10,631 bases of DNA from a virus (Duplodnaviria; Heunggongvirae; Uroviricota; Caudoviricetes). How positions within the stretch are numbered: position 1 is the stretch's first letter; every line of letters begins with the position of its first letter. The notes beneath the pieces are model-generated. The model had not been told where the DNA came from. It was given only the letters and a program-made list of their open reading frames with translations, and did not search any database. The stretch lies in IMG/VR virus record IMGVR_UViG_2703718802_000006; one strand, 5' to 3'. A program made the position numbers and the translations under genes. Shown here one piece after another: positions 3,015 to 10,631 of this stretch.

Positions 3015-4229
3015 ATGAAATACAAGCCGGATCAATACATCATCTCTGATAGTTACGGAGTTTATTACGTCAGGATCTCAATTCCTATATGGCTTCGTAA
3101 TGCATTTGGTGGAAGAAAAACTCTCGTCCGTAGTCTGAACACTTCCGATCTTCGTGTGGCACGTAGGAAGCGTGATGTTATAGCAGACGAGTTTCACCAC
3201 ATCAGGCAAATTGCAGAGCCACCAAAACCGGACAGCCTGCAGGACACAATCAGCTATCTAAAGAGCGTTGCTAAGTACGCAAAAGCTGCCCCGAAAGCAT
3301 CAGCGCCAATTATCTCCCAATGCCCCTCTCTGAATAAGATGTTGGAGATTTACCTCACGCATAACGCTGATCGCCTGAAAATTGGAACATTAAGCAAGAC
3401 CAGGAAAGCCGTAGAACTGTTTCTGAATTACCTGCGAAAGAAGGATGTGGAACTAAACGATATCAACCGTACCACCGTTACAGGCTGGCTTGATCATCTC
3501 CGAGAAACAAAGGCAGTCCAAACAGTGGCTAACTATCTTTCTGCAATGGCAAACATTCTCGATCTTGCCTCTTCCCGATACCAGGACGCCCCACAGCTGG
3601 AAAGTAACGTATTCAGAGGGCATAAACTCAACACAGCGCAGAGCCGCCAGAGTTACGAGGCATTCACGGACGAAGAAATTACGAAGCTCATTAGCACGTT
3701 TAACAAGTTAGGAGAGGACGAATTAAGGGATTTAAGCGCCATAGCCGCTTATAGCGGAATGCGCATCAATGAAATAGCCAGTTTGAAATCTGACAATATC
3801 CGTGAAGTTGAGGGGGTGTTATGTTTCGATGTATTGGAAGGAAAGACAGCTAACGCTTCCAGGCTAATCCCATGCCATAGTGCGATTAAAACAATGGTCC
3901 TGGAACGCTGCCAGAAGCCGCACAACGGCTTTTTATTTTACCGTGCAAGTGTGACCAAGAGAGAGGACGGCAAGCGCTCCTCATGGCACGTAAACCGCTT
4001 TGGACGGCTTAAACGCGATATTCTCCCAGGGCAAGAAAACAAGGTGTTTCACTCGTACCGCCATGCCGTGATCAGTAAGCTAAACGCCGCCGGAGTGGAT
4101 GAATCTCGTATTGCCTTGCTCGCGGGCCACTCATTTGGAGAAACTGAATCTTTCAAGACGTATTCGAAATCCGTTCCTGAGCGAATAGTGAAGGAACTAA
4201 AAGAATATATCGAATTAATCAAATATTAA
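3015..4229 (+). CDS. int: Tyrosine recombinase / phage-type integrase, 404 aa
   Basis: GGTGG Shine-Dalgarno before the ATG at 3015. The C-terminal catalytic pattern is visible: AYSGMRINEI (Arg), HSYRHAV (His-x-x-Arg), LLAGHS (His) and KTYSK (Tyr nucleophile). It lies immediately next to the att fragment. Confidence 0.9.
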   Translation: MKYKPDQYIISDSYGVYYVRISIPIWLRNAFGGRKTLVRSLNTSDLRVARRKRDVIADEFHHIRQIAEPPKPDSLQDTISYLKSVAKYAKAAPKASAPIISQCPSLNKMLEIYLTHNADRLKIGTLSKTRKAVELFLNYLRKKDVELNDINRTTVTGWLDHLRETKAVQTVANYLSAMANILDLASSRYQDAPQLESNVFRGHKLNTAQSRQSYEAFTDEEITKLISTFNKLGEDELRDLSAIAAYSGMRINEIASLKSDNIREVEGVLCFDVLEGKTANASRLIPCHSAIKTMVLERCQKPHNGFLFYRASVTKREDGKRSSWHVNRFGRLKRDILPGQENKVFHSYRHAVISKLNAAGVDESRIALLAGHSFGETESFKTYSKSVPERIVKELKEYIELIKY

Positions 4230-4243
4230 AATACCTTAAATGT

Positions 4244-4260
4244 GAGGGGGAATCCCCCTC
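4244..4260. terminator. Bidirectional intrinsic terminator between the convergent int and 92-aa genes
   Basis: GAGGGGG-aat-CCCCCTC perfect 7-bp GC-rich stem. On the + strand it is followed by TATTTTATTT. On the - strand it sits 4 nt downstream of the 92-aa gene stop. Confidence 0.65.
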
Positions 4261-4264
4261 TATT

Positions 4265-4543
4265 TTATTTATACCATACACTTTGCATATATTGCGATGT
4301 TTCAGATGAAATATTATACCAATATGCATAATTATTTGTTGCATCTACAACTATCAATTTATCATCACTATCCATCGCTTTATGAACTATTTGCGCTGCC
4401 TGTTCAGAATTGTAATGTGAATTAACATACCAATTTGATTCTGTAACTTTGACTGCTACGCCCAATGATTTAATAGCTTCGTAAACTGCTGGATAGTTTT
4501 TAGTTTTGATCAAGTCATAGGTTACAAAAAGATTGTTAGCCAT
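4265..4543 (-). CDS. Hypothetical 92-aa protein; predicted beta-alpha-beta-beta-alpha-beta (ferredoxin-like, Cas2/VapD-reminiscent) pattern
   Basis: GGAGAG Shine-Dalgarno 8 nt before the ATG at 4543. The region is AT-rich. Alternating segments by eye are LFVTYDL (beta, ending in Asp), YPAVYEAIKSLG (helix), AVKVTESNWYVNS (beta hairpin), SEQAAQIVHKAM (helix) and KLIVVDAT (beta). The fold is inferred by eye only. Confidence 0.7.
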   Translation of the reverse strand: MANNLFVTYDLIKTKNYPAVYEAIKSLGVAVKVTESNWYVNSHYNSEQAAQIVHKAMDSDDKLIVVDATNNYAYWYNISSETSQYMQSVWYK

Positions 4544-4571
4544 TTTATTCTCTCCAGAGATTCAAAAGAAT

Positions 4572-4591
4572 AAGCGCCGCTATAGGCGCTT
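4572..4591 (-). terminator. Intergenic hairpin (possible attenuator, partial terminator or processing site) between the 42-aa and 92-aa genes
   Basis: On the minus strand: AAGCGCC-uauagc-GGCGCUU (7 bp) followed by AUUCUUUUG. It lies 10 nt after the 42-aa gene stop and ~28 nt before the 92-aa gene start. Confidence 0.35.
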
Positions 4592-4601
4592 TGAGATGTT
4601 T

Positions 4602-4730
4602 TTATTTCTTAGCTTTCTTGGTAGGGATTTTGATAGTTTCAGTTACCGTAGTGTCAGGATGTCTTTTAGCTTCAATGGGCTTAACAAACTGACCAGTTAT
4701 CGCAGAACGAACTACTGTTTTCTTAGCCAT
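4602..4730 (-). CDS. 42-aa lysine-rich basic peptide (MAKKTVVRSAITGQFVKPIEAKRHPDTTVTETIKIPTKKAKK)
   Basis: Internal ATG of the 76-aa track ORF, preceded by GAGGTG with 4-nt spacing. The upstream 34 codons of the long form have no RBS and overlap the candidate promoter. I recall short proteins with an RSAxTGxFV…HPxTTVxE pattern being widespread and poorly annotated, but I cannot name a family. Confidence 0.55.
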   Translation of the reverse strand: MAKKTVVRSAITGQFVKPIEAKRHPDTTVTETIKIPTKKAKK

Positions 4731-4776
4731 AAAACACCTCATCTTGGAGATAAAGAGTGAACTGCTTACCCTTTTA

Positions 4777-4805
4777 AGAATAAGGGACAAACGAAGCGGC
4801 GTCAA
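4777..4805 (-). promoter_or_regulatory. Candidate sigma70 promoter for the 42-aa/92-aa cargo module
   Basis: Minus strand: TTGACG (4805-4800), 17 nt, TATTCT (4782-4777). It is ~45 nt upstream of the ATG at 4730 and immediately downstream of the structural-operon terminator. Confidence 0.4.
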
Positions 4806-4807
4806 AG

Positions 4808-4857
4808 AAAAAACACCACATATACACATCATTTACAAAACAAGCGCAATATGTGGT
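4808..4857 (-). terminator. Terminator-like hairpin ending the structural operon
   Basis: Minus strand: ACCACAUAU (4857-4849) pairs with AUAUGUGGU (4823-4815) across a 25-nt loop. After one unpaired G this is followed by UUUUUU (4813-4808). It begins ~25 nt after the 623-aa gene stop. The large loop makes it atypical. Confidence 0.4.
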
Positions 4858-4881
4858 ATCTCCATGCGATTTACATCACAA

Positions 4882-6753
4882 TCACCCCCCTGTGCTGCTC
4901 TGACCGCTCAAGGCTGACAAGGTGAGCGACTGTGTAAAACTGGCTTGTGAGGCTCTCGCCTGGAAATCAATGTAATCGCTCAGCCTTGAGCTATCGCTGG
5001 CGATAGTTAGCGGAACAGACGCTTCAAGATTGAGATTGAATACAGGTGCAAGATTGTACGCTGGCGCACTATTGGTGCTGGTTAGGGATGATATAGCAGA
5101 ATCACGAAGCGCTCCCCCTTTCAGAGAATCACCATTCAGGCCGTATTGTTCTACCGCTGTCCCTGTAGGCTGATCATCTATCCCTAACCAACCTTTAACG
5201 GCATGACCTACACTACGGCTGTCCCACCCTGTCTTGTCCTGCACCCAATCGGCAGCACTGTTGGCACTTCCTGTAACAGCACCATCATACAAACTCTGTG
5301 CCGCTGGCTTATCGCTACCAGTGAACCATTGAGGGAAACGTTCTTTCAGCCCTGCATTGATATCACTCACAACACTGGAAATCTCACCCACAAACCCAGT
5401 GATTTCTTTCGAGAGATTGCCTAAGCCCTCTCCAAGCATTCCCGCCGCTTCGGTGATAATTTTGGTTTTCCTTACCAGATCGTCGCCCCCATCGGCAAAG
5501 CCTTTCATCCAGCCTGTAAACAACTGATTGTCTATTCCATTCATCAGATTACCCATAGCAACACTCAAATCGCCATACTCATAAACCTGCTTGATCATTT
5601 CGTCGTTCAGCGTCTGACCGGACTCAATGAGAGTTCTTAGCGTCTTGTTATACTCTGCACCGTTGTTCATGAACATATCGGTGTAGTGCATCAGGTCATC
5701 ACCTAAACTCTCAATCAGCGTACCAATCTGAGCCTGTGACATACCACGGCGTTGCCCTTCATTCACCGTAGCTTGAACAAAATCGAGTGGTGAATCTTGG
5801 AACTTGGAAATCTGATCCTTACTCCATCCAAATTTGTTCATTATCGACGTAATGCCACCATCCCCACCCTTCCATTCGCCATTCTTCATTTGAGCATCGT
5901 TAACAGTCATGGCGAGGCGTTCACGCACATCTTTCATGTTATCGACGGCTTTTGAGGTATTAGCTGAATCAACACCGTGTTGCTGTCCCCAGGCCACCAT
6001 CGTTTTTATGGCGTTTGGGTTGGTTTTCACACGTTCACTCATTCTCACCAGTTCGAGGTTATCATTCCCTTTGTCAATAATTCGCTGCCCCACTCCGAGG
6101 GAGCCAGCCGTTAACGCAAGGCTTCCTAATACCCCACCACCGACGATAGGAGCATTCCCGCCCTTCTGAGCCTTTAGCTTAGTGGCTGCTGCGGCATACT
6201 GGGTACGCTGTGCCTGTGTCACTTTGGCTTGCTGTGCGGCTTCTCTGCGTAACAGGGTTACACGCTCACGAATAGATGCGTTCATACGGGCACTGGTCAG
6301 ATTGCCTTTGGCAAATTCCTCTGTTTGCTGACGTATGAAACGTAACGCTTCATATTGAGATTTAAGATCAAGTCCGTATTTACCTTTAATTCCTGACACT
6401 TGTAGCCCTGCATGGCGAAGTTTAAGCTCGGCTGTCTCTTGGTGCTTCTGTAGCTGCTGCTTCGCTTTCAGATTGGCCTTTTCATCCCTGGCTTTCTGCT
6501 TCTCTGCCGCACGTTGGGCTTTCATTTCCTTCGTATCACGAGGTTTATCATTAAAACGTGCATCATCGGCTTGTTGACGAGCTTTCTGTCTGCGCTGCTT
6601 CTGAGCCTGGAAGCGAATCTTGGGATCGGCTATTTTCTGGAAGTGCTTTTGAAGGTTATCCGCTGCGGCTTTAGCCAGAGCAATGCTCTGCTTATCCACC
6701 ACGAATGTAACCGTATTGCGGATCTGACTGACCGAAATATCAAGCATCGCCAC
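4882..6753 (-). CDS. Large structural protein, tape-measure-like, 623 aa (Lys/Gln/Ala-rich coiled-coil N-terminus plus a glycine-rich hydrophobic segment)
   Basis: Long uninterrupted ORF. Residues ~50-190 are charged heptad-like repeats (KQRRQKARQQADD…EKQKARDEKANLKAKQQLQKHQE). APIVGGGVLGSLALTAGSLGVG is a Gly-zipper hydrophobic stretch, as seen in tape measure proteins. The start is ambiguous: GTG at 6753 or ATG at 6747. It overlaps the upstream 65-aa gene by 14 nt. Confidence 0.8.
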   Translation of the reverse strand: MAMLDISVSQIRNTVTFVVDKQSIALAKAAADNLQKHFQKIADPKIRFQAQKQRRQKARQQADDARFNDKPRDTKEMKAQRAAEKQKARDEKANLKAKQQLQKHQETAELKLRHAGLQVSGIKGKYGLDLKSQYEALRFIRQQTEEFAKGNLTSARMNASIRERVTLLRREAAQQAKVTQAQRTQYAAAATKLKAQKGGNAPIVGGGVLGSLALTAGSLGVGQRIIDKGNDNLELVRMSERVKTNPNAIKTMVAWGQQHGVDSANTSKAVDNMKDVRERLAMTVNDAQMKNGEWKGGDGGITSIMNKFGWSKDQISKFQDSPLDFVQATVNEGQRRGMSQAQIGTLIESLGDDLMHYTDMFMNNGAEYNKTLRTLIESGQTLNDEMIKQVYEYGDLSVAMGNLMNGIDNQLFTGWMKGFADGGDDLVRKTKIITEAAGMLGEGLGNLSKEITGFVGEISSVVSDINAGLKERFPQWFTGSDKPAAQSLYDGAVTGSANSAADWVQDKTGWDSRSVGHAVKGWLGIDDQPTGTAVEQYGLNGDSLKGGALRDSAISSLTSTNSAPAYNLAPVFNLNLEASVPLTIASDSSRLSDYIDFQARASQASFTQSLTLSALSGQSSTGG

Positions 6754-6937
6754 CGCCTTTCTTACTCACCAGATAATTAAGTGCATCTGATACACTACGC
6801 CCACGATGTAATAACTGACGTAGATGACCGTGATCTATTTCAAGCACACGACACACTCCCGCCAGATTTAATAACTCTTCTGCTGTTTCAGCATTTACGG
6901 CGAGGTGAAGCCCCGCGCTTTTTACAATCACTTGCAT
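6740..6937 (-). CDS. Hypothetical 65-aa protein
   Basis: AAGAGGAAAG Shine-Dalgarno before the ATG at 6937. Its 3' end overlaps the start of the 623-aa gene, suggesting translational coupling. I recognise no motif. Confidence 0.6.
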   Translation of the reverse strand: MQVIVKSAGLHLAVNAETAEELLNLAGVCRVLEIDHGHLRQLLHRGRSVSDALNYLVSKKGGGDA

Positions 6938-6962
6938 TTATCTTTCCTCTTATTCTGGAAAT

Positions 6963-7046
6963 AAAAAAGGGCGGGAACACTGGGGAGATGTTCCCAACGT
7001 TCACACGCCCTATTCAAAAGCCTGATTATTGCCTGCGGGTCAGGCT
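6963..7046 (-). terminator. Two tandem intrinsic-terminator-like hairpins downstream of the capsid gene
   Basis: Minus strand T1: AGCCUGA (7046-7040) pairs with UCAGGCU (7025-7019), followed by UUUG. Minus strand T2: GGGAACA-ucuccccag-UGUUCCC (6995-6973), closed by GGGC/GCCC (7010-7007 with 6972-6969) and followed by UUUUUUAU (6968-6961). Confidence 0.55.
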
Positions 7047-7058
7047 CCCGCTTGCTCA

Positions 7059-8090
7059 TTAAGCAGTGATGGTGATCTTCACTTGCATACCTAACGCATG
7101 GTTCACTGGTAATGCGCTGTTTTCGTGCATAACGTGGTAAGCATCGCCGCGCTCGCTCAGGTAGCCCCAAGAGTAGTATTCAGCAGGTGCAGCATCGATC
7201 AGCGCGAAGTTGCCAGAGGCAGCGCCGTAGATGTTCTGATAAGCATTTGTGCCTTTACTGAATACCGGAACCGCCACCATGTCAGCATCATCTGGCATCT
7301 GTGCAAGGATCAGCGGATCTGTCACTTTAACAATGTCGATAGGCGCACCAGGTAGGCTAAACGTACTAACACCAGGGAGAAGCTCGTGACGCTGGTAGAA
7401 TAGGTTACGGTCGTCATATGGCGCTACATACTGGAACGCCTTAGACATACTGTCAGAGAAGCGAATCTGGCTAAATGCAGCAGGTTTAGCGAATACGATC
7501 ACTCGTTCAATCTGTCCAGCCAATCCACCTGCGGCAGCCTGAACTTTGTCTAAGATGGCATCAAAATCCTGTGCCGCTGTCGCTGTGCTCACGCTGGCTG
7601 TCATTGGCACCACACCGAACAGTTCAGCATAAGAGATCAGTAGGTCATCAGTTGCAGGCGTATAAACTTCACCTTTGAACAGAGCACGGGCCAGGTAGGA
7701 TTCACGGGTACGAAGATAGGCAATCTTATGTTTCCCTGTGTACTCGGTGTACAGGTCGGTAACGGTTTGCTCGTAGTCCGTGCCTTGCACCCTTTTCCCT
7801 TGTACGTCTACTGGTTTGAAGGTGTCTTCCCTCGCAAACCAAGGGATCTCCACCAAATATTCTTTACCATTCTGACGCGCGGTAGTGTCGTGGCTTGATG
7901 AATAACGACTCTGCGGGGTGTTAAACAGGCTGTAGTTATCATCCAGAAGCTGTGTCACCACCACTTTCGGATTCTGAACACCTACCCCGTCGAAGAGGTC
8001 GAGAGCATTCATAAGATAGTTACGTTCCGGCAGAGCCTGGAAGATTGGCGCTAAATCGACCATCTCACGCCCAATTGCGATTTTACTCAT
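7059..8090 (-). CDS. Major capsid protein, lambda gpE-like family, 343 aa
   Basis: AAGGAAG Shine-Dalgarno before the ATG at 8090. The size is typical of E-family capsid proteins. The central segment ESYLARALFKGEVYTP resembles the lambda E segment EMQAVSAVLKGKYTM. It sits directly after a small decoration-like gene, as in the lambda D-E order. Family assignment is by eye. Confidence 0.75.
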   Translation of the reverse strand: MSKIAIGREMVDLAPIFQALPERNYLMNALDLFDGVGVQNPKVVVTQLLDDNYSLFNTPQSRYSSSHDTTARQNGKEYLVEIPWFAREDTFKPVDVQGKRVQGTDYEQTVTDLYTEYTGKHKIAYLRTRESYLARALFKGEVYTPATDDLLISYAELFGVVPMTASVSTATAAQDFDAILDKVQAAAGGLAGQIERVIVFAKPAAFSQIRFSDSMSKAFQYVAPYDDRNLFYQRHELLPGVSTFSLPGAPIDIVKVTDPLILAQMPDDADMVAVPVFSKGTNAYQNIYGAASGNFALIDAAPAEYYSWGYLSERGDAYHVMHENSALPVNHALGMQVKITITA

Positions 8091-8106
8091 TATTTATCTT
8101 CCTTGA

Positions 8107-8466
8107 TTAAGAGGTGAAGAATGGACGGCATACGAACCCTTTGGATTCGAGCGTGGTGATAGCTGCGGCGTGATTAGCTGCGTGCAGGTTGTCGGCTTTC
8201 AGTGCTACGAAGCTGCCAACATTAGGCGCACGTAGGACATTCACGGTTTTACCGTCGCCAGCACTCACGAAATCACTTACCACCACAAAGGCATCATCGC
8301 CGGAGGTGTATAGAGCGCCATCAGCGCCGATAACATCGCCGCATTCAATATCTGCTGGCAGGTCGAAAACACGGCCTTCTACGACTGCAAAAGAATCAGT
8401 GGCGTAGCTCACTACGTCAGTGAAACTCTTACGAATTGGGAAAAGTTCGGTTAGGTCTACAATCAT
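8107..8466 (-). CDS. Head decoration protein-like (lambda gpD-type position and size), 119 aa
   Basis: ATGA start/stop overlap with the upstream 71-aa gene. It is a small Gly/Ala/Val/Asp-rich beta-type protein immediately upstream of the capsid gene. Function is inferred mainly from synteny and composition. Confidence 0.6.
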   Translation of the reverse strand: MIVDLTELFPIRKSFTDVVSYATDSFAVVEGRVFDLPADIECGDVIGADGALYTSGDDAFVVVSDFVSAGDGKTVNVLRAPNVGSFVALKADNLHAANHAAAITTLESKGFVCRPFFTS

Positions 8467-8678
8467 TGTTGTTTGATTTCCTTGGATTTGATTGCGATCC
8501 GTTCCTGCATACTAAGTTGAGGTGTGTCCTCAGAAGGGAAATACTGGTCTACAGCTTTTTCTATTTCTTCAACGGTACATCCTGCCATTTCAGCCACTTT
8601 AGCTATTAACTCAGGATTAACTTGAATCACTTCGGATTTGTATTTTAGGATTCGGTCGCGATTGTTTATTAAGAACAT
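8463..8678 (-). CDS. Hypothetical 71-aa acidic helical protein, first gene of the capsid cluster
   Basis: AAGGAA Shine-Dalgarno 8 nt before the ATG at 8678. It is coupled to the next gene by an ATGA overlap. It occupies the position of a scaffold-type gene, but I see no recognisable similarity. Confidence 0.6.
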   Translation of the reverse strand: MFLINNRDRILKYKSEVIQVNPELIAKVAEMAGCTVEEIEKAVDQYFPSEDTPQLSMQERIAIKSKEIKQQ

Positions 8679-8749
8679 TGTGTTGTTCCTTCGCGTTATA
8701 ACTGCGTTTATCCTTCCATTAATAACGGAAGTGTTACATGCAGATTGTT

Positions 8750-8771
8750 AAAAAGGGGCGATTAAGCCCCT
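8750..8771 (-). terminator. Rho-independent terminator ending the leader/ncRNA transcript
   Basis: Minus strand: A-GGGGC-uuaauc-GCCCC-U followed by UUUUU (8754-8750). This is a canonical GC stem plus U tract, 72 nt upstream of the 71-aa gene start. Confidence 0.7.
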
Positions 8772-9296
8772 GGAGAATATGCCCTTGTTAGAAAGCATTC
8801 TGTTAAAATCATTTTCGTTTCGGAGGATTATGATGTTAAAGAAAGGTTTCTTGAAAAAATGAAGGGCGCAACTGTTACGAATAACAGAAGTAGGATCGCC
8901 CGTCATTGCTCCCACTTCAAAACAGAAGCCCTTCTGTCATGGCGAGAAGTGGGAATGGAATTTCTTATCACCCTGGAATAGTAATAAGAGATTGCCAGCC
9001 TGAACGTAACTACCACTGACGGCGTTTATTCAGTCTGACTGCTTATAATCCTAACGGGGTTATAAGGTTTAGAGCACGGAATATGCTCTCTGAAAGAGAA
9101 TGTGCGCGGTGATTGTTCGTTACCACCCGACACAAGTGGGAACGCCCGCGCCACCCTTTGGAACTAAACACAACAAAGGAAAACAACCAGCTTTCAGAGA
9201 GGATATTCAATGGGAGAGAGCGCCGCCTATGGGAAACGGCATTCTCAGGGAGTGCGTATTGTTATACGAGGGTGGAGTGATTCTAATACCTACCCT
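8750..9296 (-). ncRNA. Candidate ~550-nt structured non-coding transcript (or long late-operon leader), family unknown
   Basis: Bounded by a near-consensus promoter and a clean terminator on the same strand. There is no convincing ORF on either strand. It contains many hairpins: 9255-9268, 9216-9246, 9104-9151, 9071-9089, 9042-9066, 8910-8954 (nested) and 8872-8887. The last has a UUCG loop only in the minus-strand sense. Confidence 0.5.
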
Positions 9297-9303
9297 ATAA
9301 CTT

Positions 9304-9332
9304 ATTATGACACAAATAGCACAATATGTCAA
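9304..9332 (-). promoter_or_regulatory. Near-consensus sigma70 promoter
   Basis: Minus strand: TTGACA (9332-9327), 17-nt spacer, CATAAT (9309-9304). The predicted start is near A9296/G9295. Confidence 0.65.
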
Positions 9333-9347
9333 GATATTTCGTAATAT

Positions 9348-9686
9348 TTATGTTATAGCGCATTCTTCCGCGATCTGGATGGCAAGCTCTCCGAGTTCAA
9401 CGGTGATGTGTTCCATAGCGAGGGCAAGCTCCTCCATATCATTGGCAATGCGCCACGCCTGATCCACGGTGACGGTATCCCCGTTCATCTGCACCAGGTG
9501 CTCTACAGCAGCATTCCAGTGTTCAAGGGCGGTGATTGCCTGTTCAGTGTATTGCAGCGCTTCCAGGAGCGCGGAGGGCGTTCTCTCACACCACGCCCTA
9601 TTAACAAGCCACAGGGCTGGTAGATGCCAAATATCGTGGAAATAGTTAATTAGGGTGTTCATGGTGTCCATAGTTTTATTATTCAT
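9348..9686 (-). CDS. Hypothetical 112-aa helical protein
   Basis: I chose the ATG at 9686 because it overlaps the stop of the upstream 127-aa gene (AACAATGAATAA). The 161-aa long form would overlap that gene by 155 nt. The sequence is rich in Ala/Glu/Leu helices. The stop is 15 nt upstream of the -35 element of the RNA promoter. Confidence 0.6.
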   Translation of the reverse strand: MNNKTMDTMNTLINYFHDIWHLPALWLVNRAWCERTPSALLEALQYTEQAITALEHWNAAVEHLVQMNGDTVTVDQAWRIANDMEELALAMEHITVELGELAIQIAEECAIT

Positions 9687-10062
9687 TGTTGTTTTCCTTG
9701 TCGTCAAAGAGAATATCAAAATCTTGTATGTGGTGAGATAAGCCGTTAGTTTGGGAATACCCCACCCAGTCAACATAGTTTTCTGCGTATAGCTGCCACT
9801 TCTTAAGATTCGATGAATCAACACGGTATTCACGGCGGCGGCGTGGTTTATAGAAGACGTTATCCGAAGATGCTAAAACATCCTGCAATAGTTCAAACTC
9901 TGCCCCTACGGGCACCGTTGCAGGGTATTCTATTATTTCGGTGATCCATTCTCCTGGAATAGACTCTCGTGCGAGGTCTTGTAGAGAAGAGGTGTATTTA
10001 CGTTTGCTGGCGCGAGTGGCTTTTTCGATTCTAACAATGTTACTTCGTTCTTTTCGTCCCAT
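9679..10062 (-). CDS. Hypothetical 127-aa protein (basic N-terminus, acidic C-terminus)
   Basis: GAGGAA Shine-Dalgarno 3-5 nt before the ATG at 10062. It is translationally coupled to the downstream gene. I recognise no motif. Confidence 0.65.
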   Translation of the reverse strand: MGRKERSNIVRIEKATRASKRKYTSSLQDLARESIPGEWITEIIEYPATVPVGAEFELLQDVLASSDNVFYKPRRRREYRVDSSNLKKWQLYAENYVDWVGYSQTNGLSHHIQDFDILFDDKENNNE

Positions 10063-10075
10063 TCATTCCTCGTAG

Positions 10076-10162
10076 AGGGAAACTTCCGTGTTTTCTCGTT
10101 AATGTCCATACTGCGTAAAATGCAAATAACCAATACATAGCGATGATCATAAAAGTTTCCCT
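10076..10162. repeat. 10-bp perfect inverted repeat with a 67-nt spacer
   Basis: AGGGAAACTT (10076-10085) and AAGTTTCCCT (10153-10162). They flank the intergenic region between the 94-aa and 127-aa genes. This could be an operator pair or a long-range RNA stem. Confidence 0.5.
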
Positions 10163-10171
10163 ATTGTGTGT

Positions 10172-10456
10172 TTAGAAATTAGAGTAGATAAATTCTACAT
10201 TGTCTCGTTCGATGTGTTTCAGCGTGAATGATAGATAATGGCTTTCATCGTCGATATCGATCACACCAATGTTGCGCAGCGCACGAAGCCAGAATCTGAT
10301 CCCGTTATCACTTACACTGGATTTATCAGATAGCTCTCCGTAAGAAATTTTAGTTTTTCTGCCCTTCCAGAACCAGATAAGCGCATAATAAACGCCCTTC
10401 CCGCTATCGTTGATCTGTATCTGGTTTGTGTTGTTCAATTTTATGTATTGTATCAA
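10172..10456 (-). CDS. Winged-helix-like DNA-binding protein, 94 aa, TTG start
   Basis: AGGAGG (10467-10462) plus a 5-nt spacer before the TTG at 10456. The segment ISYGELSDKSSVSDNGIRFWLRALRNIGVIDID reads as helix-turn-helix followed by a beta wing. Confidence 0.65.
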   Translation of the reverse strand: MIQYIKLNNTNQIQINDSGKGVYYALIWFWKGRKTKISYGELSDKSSVSDNGIRFWLRALRNIGVIDIDDESHYLSFTLKHIERDNVEFIYSNF

Positions 10457-10469
10457 TTAGTCCTCCTGA

Positions 10470-10601
10470 TTAGTTCCAGTGGCGTTGTATTGTGGCGATC
10501 CCTTTCTTCATTAGTTCAGCCGTTTGTCTTTGGGTCAATCCTTTGGATTTGTGTTCCTGTACTTCTTTACGGGTGTTGTTACCTTTAACTTTCTTTCTCA
10601 C
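10470..10601 (-). CDS. Possible 43-aa HTH peptide (…GLTQRQTAELMKKGIATIQRHWN), GTG start, or the 3' end of a gene interrupted by an in-frame TAG
   Basis: The HTH-like motif resembles Hin/resolvase-type C-terminal HTH domains. An in-frame TAG at 10607-10605 lies two codons upstream of the GTG. The frame upstream of the TAG is open to the window edge. There is no clear Shine-Dalgarno. Confidence 0.35.
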   Translation of the reverse strand: MRKKVKGNNTRKEVQEHKSKGLTQRQTAELMKKGIATIQRHWN

Positions 10602-10631
10602 TTTCTAGACTGGCCCCCTGAATCTCCAGAC

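Follow-up and report, generated by a model that had tools for sequence, protein, structure and literature searches.

What does a small integrated element keep in a gap of 669 bp that holds no credible gene? The question is raised by the window, the whole 10,631-nucleotide (nt) stretch of DNA analyzed here (IMG/VR virus record IMGVR_UViG_2703718802_000006, Caudoviricetes), in which such an element adjoins Escherichia coli chromosomal sequence. Around the gap, the minus-strand genes stand in the order capsid gene, 119-amino-acid (aa) gene, 71-aa gene, 669-bp gap, and genes of 112, 127, and 94 aa. An earlier note on this DNA, made from its letters alone, had described the gap as a promoted and terminated structured RNA upstream of the capsid genes. 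Our analysis of the sequence indicates that the gap very probably specifies a structured, non-coding RNA unit on the minus strand, the transcript itself being predicted. Our favored reading, to which we give a probability of about 0.45, is that its RNA is a terminated leader, insulating the morphogenetic operon and read through on antitermination only.

The outer limits of the unit and its downstream flank are marked by the following signals.

9304..9332, minus strand: sigma-70 promoter TTGACA-17-(TG)CATAAT, with 11/12 matches, the TG of an extended −10, and a predicted start near 9296.
8750..9296, minus strand: predicted non-coding RNA of ~547 nt (~440 nt if its 3′ end is t1).
8851..8907, minus strand: P11, the terminator-like t1, GGGCG...CGCCC around CUGUUA-UUCG-UAACAG, then UUCAUUUUUU; −17.1 kcal/mol.
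8750..8771, minus strand: intrinsic terminator t2, AGGGGC-UUAAUC-GCCCCU plus a U-run, folding at −11.5 kcal/mol.
8676..8743, minus strand: post-terminator 5′ untranslated region (5′UTR) with a conserved hairpin (8743-8702), the ribosome-binding site (RBS) GAAGGA, and the ATG (8678) of the 71-aa gene.

The promoter at 9332-9304 and t2 (GGGGC-UUAAUC-GCCCC plus UUUUU, here at 8770-8750) had both been called in the earlier note, and both are present. A pattern scanner gave no call at t2, an omission apparently caused by an additional A-U pair that encroaches on the U-run. In homologs, the t2 stem varies (GGGCUAC..GUAGCCC, GGCGAC..GUCGCC, and GGGGCG..AGCCCC), with the U-rich tail kept in the homologs aligned, and the t1 stem changes from GGGCG/CGCCC to ACCCCCG/CGGGGGU plus a U-run at the related loci L023, L043, L036, and L050. 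The last early gene, which encodes the 112-aa protein, is co-oriented with the promoter and ends ~16 nt before the −35 element; homologs and the other RNA classes described below carry a near-consensus extended −10 promoter at the equivalent place. On the downstream side, the t1/t2 tandem sits ~70 nt before the first structural gene, the 71-aa gene being the first of the capsid operon, and a promoter scan found no promoter-like site on the minus strand between t2 and position 8400. The conserved hairpin between t2 and the RBS of the 71-aa gene (8702-8743) consists of CUGC...GCAG around CUUCC/GGAAG, and the Shine–Dalgarno region of this gene is able to pair with codons 2-4 in the predicted fold.

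The gap had been described as free of credible coding sequence, and this held across homologs, in which no open reading frame (ORF) on either strand keeps its start, frame, and stop. The ORF 8906-8748, which had been named as one to check for codon-like conservation, is put out of frame by indels of 1 and 4 nt at L004 and at further loci. A hidden small protein gene, either sense (8915-8748, 55 aa) or antisense (8859-8981, 40 aa, MKGATVTNN...), is the least probable of the explanations that we considered. An antisense ORF of 27-75 aa does occur in most homologs of the window's own RNA class (class I), but it is confined to the near-invariant P10-P11 block, frameshifts alter both its start and its C-terminus, it is missing or in another frame in L007 and L023, and no Shine–Dalgarno sequence precedes it; the sense ORF is likewise disrupted by 1- and 4-nt indels.

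Searches against known RNAs were negative, in line with the earlier note, which had recognized no familiar RNA. Rfam 15 gave no match at the gathering score in the window, L002, or nine other loci, and at E ≤ 10 only chance-level matches at E > 1 were seen in the gap. No covariance-model match was obtained in the window and 10 related loci for GOLLD, ROOL, other large Rfam RNAs, phi29 pRNA, 6S RNA, tmRNA, RNase P, or riboswitches. For the P4/P1-type immunity RNAs (CI, C4), no Rfam model matched at E up to 10, with no separate check that a CI/C4 model is among those searched. A match to a replication origin was also looked for and not found, the origin-like iterons lying in a different gap. The window RNA is a new family, outside every defined RNA family.

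The 547-nt RNA folds with a minimum free energy (MFE) of −174.9 kcal/mol, compared with −139.3 ± 5.9 kcal/mol for dinucleotide shuffles (z = −6.08), and 0/100 shuffles were as stable. Since the opposite strand folds well too (z = −5.27), energy alone does not give the choice of strand. The predicted architecture comprises about 13 helices and the two intrinsic terminators; its elements other than the terminators lie as follows.

9269..9296, minus strand: P1, the 5′ hairpin, with the loop UAUU(A/C)GAAUCA kept on a variable stem.
9255..9268, minus strand: P2, CGUAU-AACA-AUACG, an optional module cleanly missing in L009, L011, L013, L046, and L047.
9216..9246, minus strand: P3, GAGA.UGCCGUUU / AGGCGGCG.UCUC, with 98% of cells paired.
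9075..9212, minus strand: P4, a long-range helix of 9212-9191 with 9096-9075; domain at −51.7 kcal/mol, with P5 and P6 inside.
9071..9089, minus strand: local hairpin AGAGCA/UGCUCU, overlapping the 3′ arm of P4 as a possible alternative pairing.
9042..9066, minus strand: P7, with a covarying stem (CUUAUAA, CAUUCAU, AAGCCC, CAACCC) and a nearly invariant apex CC-GUUA-GG.
8994..9039, minus strand: P8, GUCAG.CUGAAU... / ...GUUCAG.CUGGC, exactly deleted in L025.
8963..8989, minus strand: P9, UCUUAUUACU / GGUGAUAAGA, with an extra hairpin inserted in L035-type homologs.
8909..8955, minus strand: P10, a two-tier hairpin with a GGGC apex; −20.4 kcal/mol.
8790..8851, minus strand: P12, an A/U-rich extended hairpin between t1 and t2.

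P4 closes a 140-nt domain that holds P5 (9180-9154) and P6 (9151-9104). All hairpins listed in the earlier note were found where it had placed them, and P1, the long-range P4, P5, P8, P9, P12, and the second terminator t1 are added here. Its GC-rich core stood within the gap, where 9050-9300 has 48-52% GC as against 33-47% for the rest, but not against the wider element, the upstream gene having 57-59%. In the MFE fold, the local hairpin AGAGCA/UGCUCU (9089-9071) competes with P4. It takes the forms AGGGC/GCUCU and AAAGCA/UGCUUU in homologs, and alignments read by eye, with no dedicated count, suggest that the local and the P4 pairings both covary.

Homologs for covariation analysis were collected by three routes: the capsid protein was searched in species genomes; an exact 23-27-nt P10 pattern was searched in viral and metagenome contigs, giving a set biased to invariant P10; and the capsid family was followed, without the P10 bias, through its protein clusters, the contigs encoding them, and a profile scan of viral contigs. 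The capsid family comprises 52 protein clusters at 40-98% identity, and every named member is from Enterobacterales. About 30 distinct class I, that is window-like, versions of the RNA were obtained, which are 60-90% identical to the window. The compensatory base changes that the earlier note had proposed to look for were already present in the first pairwise comparison, in which CUUAUAA/UUAUAAG in P7 is replaced by CAUUCAU/AUGAAUG, and CGUUCCCAC/GUGGUAACG by GAUGUAAUA/UAUUGCAUC, the latter change including a U.G pair that is valid on the minus strand only. Independent MFE folds of 8, then 10 divergent versions gave an identical order of helices.

The counts that follow are to be read with two limits: the homologs form a recombinant mosaic, so that alignment cells are not independent events, and the tested structure was taken from the window's own minus-strand fold, which inflates the paired percentages and the G.U count. 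In sequence-only alignments, 84.8% of cells were paired in the 5′ half (42-53% in slid controls) and 93.4% in the 3′ half (38-52%). Changes on both sides of a pair were seen in 21 pairs of the 5′ half, as against 4-14 in slid controls, and in 14 pairs of the 3′ half, as against 3-9. In each half, 0/500 shuffles equaled the real alignment for four of the five measures; the fifth, further pair types, was not above shuffles in these sequence-only alignments (494/500 in the 5′ half and 15/500 in the 3′ half). When P7-P10 of 29 versions were aligned with a covariance model, 86.1% of cells were paired (40-45% in slid controls), both-side changes occurred in 20/51 pairs (4-13 in slid controls), and 0/500 shuffles was the result for all five measures.

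Individual helices displayed the same pattern. P4 carries double changes in 5/20 pairs, for example GAAUAU/AUAUUC to GAAUGC/GCAUUC and CUGAAAG/CUUUCAG to CGUAAAG/CUUUACG, and P7 carries them in 6/9 pairs. The outer stem of P10, UCCCACUUC/GAAGUGGGA, becomes CCUCAUUU/AAAUGAGG in L035/L046 and AUCUGUUAC/GUAGCAGAU in L036/L050, fully compensated in both cases. Whole hairpins are exchanged as modules, P2 and P8 being cleanly missing in some homologs and others being added, and apical loops are nearly invariant on variable stems (P1 UCGAAUCA, P7 CC-GUUA-GG, and P10 GGGC).

Many inverted repeats, together with good folding of both strands (z = −6.1 and −5.3), would also be expected of an element acting at the DNA level, such as a replication origin, a pac/cos site, or an operator array. 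We regard this as very improbable. The origin-type iterons are in another gap (L002 12865-12992), and neither the RNA gap, the promoter region, nor that other gap of 1.6 kb has DNA similarity to any phage or plasmid. Helix arms that are separated by up to ~95 nt and lie between a promoter and terminators are RNA-like and unlike protein-binding palindromes. In addition, G.U cells number 297 and A.C cells 58, in a test biased by a structure that came from the minus-strand fold, and this excess favors the minus strand as the RNA. Together, the compensated pairs beyond controls, the strand asymmetry, and the lack of a conserved ORF point to the discrete promoter-to-terminator, structured non-coding RNA that the earlier note had proposed, and the alignments indicate that its fold is maintained by compensatory mutations.

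The genomic layout is conserved far beyond class I. The capsid-gene relatives inspected span 42-99% identity within Enterobacterales, and all have the same layout: a last early gene, a near-consensus extended −10 promoter, an ORF-free structured stretch of 200-700 nt, one or more terminators, a small gene, a putative decoration gene, and the capsid gene. Nine distant relatives with capsids 42-77% identical (L030, L032, L034-L039, and L062) were inspected, and an ORF-free gap of 340-800 bp was present in 9/9, with a ~110-aa gene on one side and the small, putative decoration, and capsid genes on the other. Promoters with at least 9/12 matches were found in 8 of these nine gaps, and the extended −10 TG in all four scanned by tool. 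Examples, with 17-18-bp spacing, are TTGACA-17-TAAGAT (L030), TTGACA-17-TAATAT (L032), TTGCAA-17-TATAAT (L034), and TTGACA-17-TACTAT (L035), and a start region with (A)GGG follows the promoter in the relatives' gaps. Terminators were read or called in L030, L032, L034, L037, and L062; where checked, one or two hairpin-plus-U-run terminators close the gap.

The RNA bodies in this slot fall into several classes that were not linked by blastn, nhmmer, or the covariance model R1, R1 and nhmmer recovering class I only. L030, for example, has only short motifs in common with class I (GUUCC..AGG and CGUUAGGA). Class I is present in 14/5426 complete E. coli genomes, and class II (~210-250 nt) in 307/5426, about 6%. 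Class II, as seen in a sister element (L032 6091-6350), consists of a CU-rich tract CUUCUCCUCCUCCUUAAG, an 11-bp hairpin, and a terminator, and it has no match in Rfam. That the layout persists across classes of differing sequence suggests a function in cis, linked to the operon.

The locus combines promoter and terminator signals, a strand-specific covarying structure, an absence of coding, and a conserved layout. In the mechanism that we favor, the sigma-70 unit on the minus strand would make a multi-hairpin non-coding RNA of ~440-550 nt, and the same RNA would be the leader of the morphogenetic operon, comprising the 71-aa gene, the putative decoration gene, the capsid gene, and a tape-measure protein (TMP)-like gene. 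Terminators t1 and t2 would halt RNA polymerase arriving both from this promoter and from the co-oriented upstream early genes, and the capsid genes would be expressed only once termination is overridden, the override probably coming from an antitermination factor, encoded by a helper phage or by the element, that acts at the promoter or on the nascent leader. A role as a transcriptional barrier is suggested because a promoter follows the early stop codon, two terminators follow the promoter, no later promoter was found, and the layout is kept without the sequence. From these features, we infer synthesis of the RNA, efficient terminators, and a regulated read-through with its factor.

Several observations weigh against this mechanism. 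No antiterminator was identified, and at the "Q position" is the 112-aa protein, a simple bundle of three helices for which the PDB gave no relative at E < 0.001. No conserved −10-like pause element follows the start, where the box reads TAGGGT, TAAGGG, TATGGG, or TTGGGT; there is no similarity to phage PR′/qut regions; and ops-like and boxA-like motifs are not conserved. The transcript and the efficiency of its terminators are predictions from sequence. Finally, a simple gate does not explain about a dozen compensated hairpins and a long-range helix.

Since a promoter and a terminator would suffice for a bare barrier, a trans or ribonucleoprotein function is a serious rival, although it is compatible with gating. 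The RNA might be a stable, abundant trans-acting molecule independent of the downstream operon, with the terminators merely setting its 3′ end; immunity or interference against helper or rival elements, a protein sponge, and an assembly or packaging cofactor are candidate roles. This possibility, which we rate as somewhat unlikely, would account for the size and ornate covariation-supported architecture, the long-range helix included, for the strong constitutive-looking promoter, and for the nearly invariant loops on variable stems (P1, CC-GUUA-GG, and GGGC), which resemble recognition sites. Precedents exist in the short PR′-tR′ transcript of Stx phages, which functions as a small RNA (sRNA) (PMC7547250), and in the most abundant PLE transcript, which is non-coding (PMC7567579). 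Conversely, the occurrence of several unrelated classes in the same slot across the capsid family is unexpected for a dedicated ribonucleoprotein part, and a trans-acting RNA has no need of strict co-orientation with, and adjacency to, the operon.

The element also appears to hold no antisense target for such an RNA. The longest complement within it is a perfect 12-nt match between the RNA (GUUGUUUUCCUU; positions 110-121, window 9187-9176) and the RBS of the 112-aa gene (9688-9699), a length at about chance level, and it is lost in homologs with the same RBS. This match is probably due to chance, and an antisense role inside the element seems unlikely from these comparisons; RNAduplex on long targets was uninformative for this search.

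A more specific form of trans function, which we consider distinctly unlikely, is that the window RNA belongs to a new class of large, ornate RNAs in the satellite life cycle. It would serve as a cofactor for the assembly or filling of small capsids or as a decoy for the helper, with the loops as protein-recognition sites and the position coupling production of RNA and capsid.

An ordinary long 5′UTR, whose structure stabilizes or processes the mRNA (by protection from Rho or RNases, or through RNase III sites) and whose leaky hairpins set the expression level with no regulated antitermination, would fit a leader that is untranslated and pyrimidine-rich in places, the extra conserved hairpin between t2 and the RBS, and hairpins acting as dispensable modules. 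We hold this to be quite improbable: t2 is a canonical GC-rich stem with a U-run, a terminator is kept in the classes checked, and tandem terminators are hard to square with constitutive read-through.

The terminated leader that we favor has a close counterpart in lambdoid phages. There, PR′ fires constitutively, its transcripts end a short way downstream in lysogens, and the short terminated PR′-tR′ product can be a functional sRNA (PMC7547250). Like the PR′-6S-tR′/Q system of lambda, including StxS of Stx phages, the window has a strong constitutive-looking promoter right after the last early gene and a predicted short non-coding transcript with an intrinsic terminator just before the late or structural genes. 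Unlike it, the window leader is 2-3 times longer, far more structured, and ended by two tandem terminators. The element lacks a Q-like gene, a recognizable qut site or pause element, and sequence similarity to any PR′ region of phages.

The HK022 put RNA and the lambda nut sites are cis-acting antitermination RNAs. As in these, leader hairpins just past the promoter could modify RNA polymerase; P7 has a nearly invariant apex on a variable stem and is preceded in some variants by the boxA-resembling CGCUCUUUA. In contrast to nut, the boxA-like string varies among homologs, reading UGCUCUAAA in the window and UGCUUUUUA in L016.

The following candidates were set aside. The TAGGGT at +1 was rejected as a sigma-dependent pause element since TAnnnT is not kept. 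Of the ops element of RfaH leaders, GGCGGTAGnnTG, only the part GCGGTAG occurs, at the apex of P8 in some variants, where it varies as a hairpin arm. The boxA-like string is variable and makes up the 3′ side of a local hairpin, which itself appears to covary. A Csr-type GGA sponge was rejected by eye, the GGA motifs being too few.

In the P4 immunity region, transcription starts from the PLE promoter, the leader contains seqA, CI-seqB, and seqC, premature termination gates the operon, and the leader yields a regulatory RNA. The element in the window resembles it in being satellite-like, with constitutive promoter signals and a structured leader before an operon, gating being a prediction here. 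The two differ in that the window gate precedes morphogenetic genes whereas that of P4 precedes replication genes, and in that the window RNA has neither an Rfam match nor conserved complementarity to other sites of the element. Among the roles suggested in the earlier note, a P4-type regulatory or immunity leader is the closest to our favored reading; those in packaging, assembly, and anti-phage defense are speculative.

Non-coding RNAs of the PLE satellite and its helper phage ICP1 are abundant, and the P4 immunity leader is alluded to in the same work (PMC7567579). With GOLLD, ROOL, and the ICP1/PLE RNAs, the window RNA shares a length of several hundred nt, a multi-helix fold, and phage-related carriers (PMC7567579). 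It differs from these RNAs in having no Rfam match, in its restriction to one Enterobacterales element family, and in its fixed place before an operon. The window RNA is a variant of the phage and satellite theme of the terminated leader or regulatory RNA.

The two genes upstream of the promoter encode the following proteins.

9348-9686, minus strand: acidic 112-aa protein, an antiparallel three-helix bundle (AF2 pLDDT 87.5) with an invariant WHLP motif.
9679-10062, minus strand: 127-aa protein with an Arg/Lys-rich N-terminus (MGRKERSNIVRIEKATRASKRKY) and a KPRRRRE motif, conserved across the family.

The 112-aa protein has no Pfam or PHROG match and no structural relative of known function, and it was rejected as a Q-like antiterminator because its three-helix bundle is generic. 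The N-terminus of the 127-aa protein recalls N-type arginine-rich motifs, and the protein is a possible RNA-binding or N-like factor; its AF2 pLDDT of 55.7 is too low for a fold search, and no N-like protein was established in the element.

The window starts in the E. coli chromosome (paoC, paoD, and a truncated LysR gene), and the element comes next. Its only plus-strand gene is the integrase, all others being on the minus strand.

3015-4229, plus strand: integrase.

The capsid gene is lambda-E-like (PF03864), and beyond it lie two small genes, a gene for a 623-aa tape-measure-like protein (phrog_16051), and a 65-aa gene. The 119-aa gene beside the capsid gene is a putative decoration gene by position and size; its product has no Pfam or PHROG match. 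The element spans 3015-10631 in the window and 3355-13700 in L002, with relatives in L030-L039. Its gene set includes a DUF6538-type integrase, the lambda-E-like capsid protein, a ~119-aa putative decoration protein, a ~615-aa tape-measure-like protein, and winged helix-turn-helix (wHTH) proteins (HTH_36, DUF6945), with Dit-like or PhiTE-adaptor-like genes in some members. No portal, terminase, or protease gene was detected in the element, 50,697 phage records contain no close relative of the capsid protein, and a literature search found no published description of this element family. The element that carries the RNA appears to be an undescribed, satellite-like integrative element of ~10 kb.

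A sequence identical to the window is carried by E. coli RM10410, and a fuller, 87%-identical version adjoins thrW/proA in MS6192 and AR_0128. In RM10410, an IS2 lies ~0.6 kb past the last annotated element gene (L001 14018-15246), and the HTH genes of MS6192 have no annotated counterparts; the RM10410 copy has probably been truncated and is probably defective. The fuller element in L002 has a second ORF-free gap, of 1.6 kb, with four tandem 32-bp iterons (ACATCAATTTGATGT...) at 12865-12992, each with an internal inverted repeat, and this array is probably the replication origin of the element. In CFSAN051542 (NZ_CP020835.1 3778564-3780011), an IS1 annotation underlies a two-piece match to the RNA region, which suggests that IS1 has inserted there.

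If confirmed, a covariation-supported family of ~550 nt that is absent from Rfam would join the few large bacterial non-coding RNAs, and a control point of the capsid genes in small capsid-encoding integrative elements would be revealed. The promoter–leader–terminator cassette, with its interchangeable RNA bodies, would then offer a handle on helper sensing and on the timing of capsid production in these elements.

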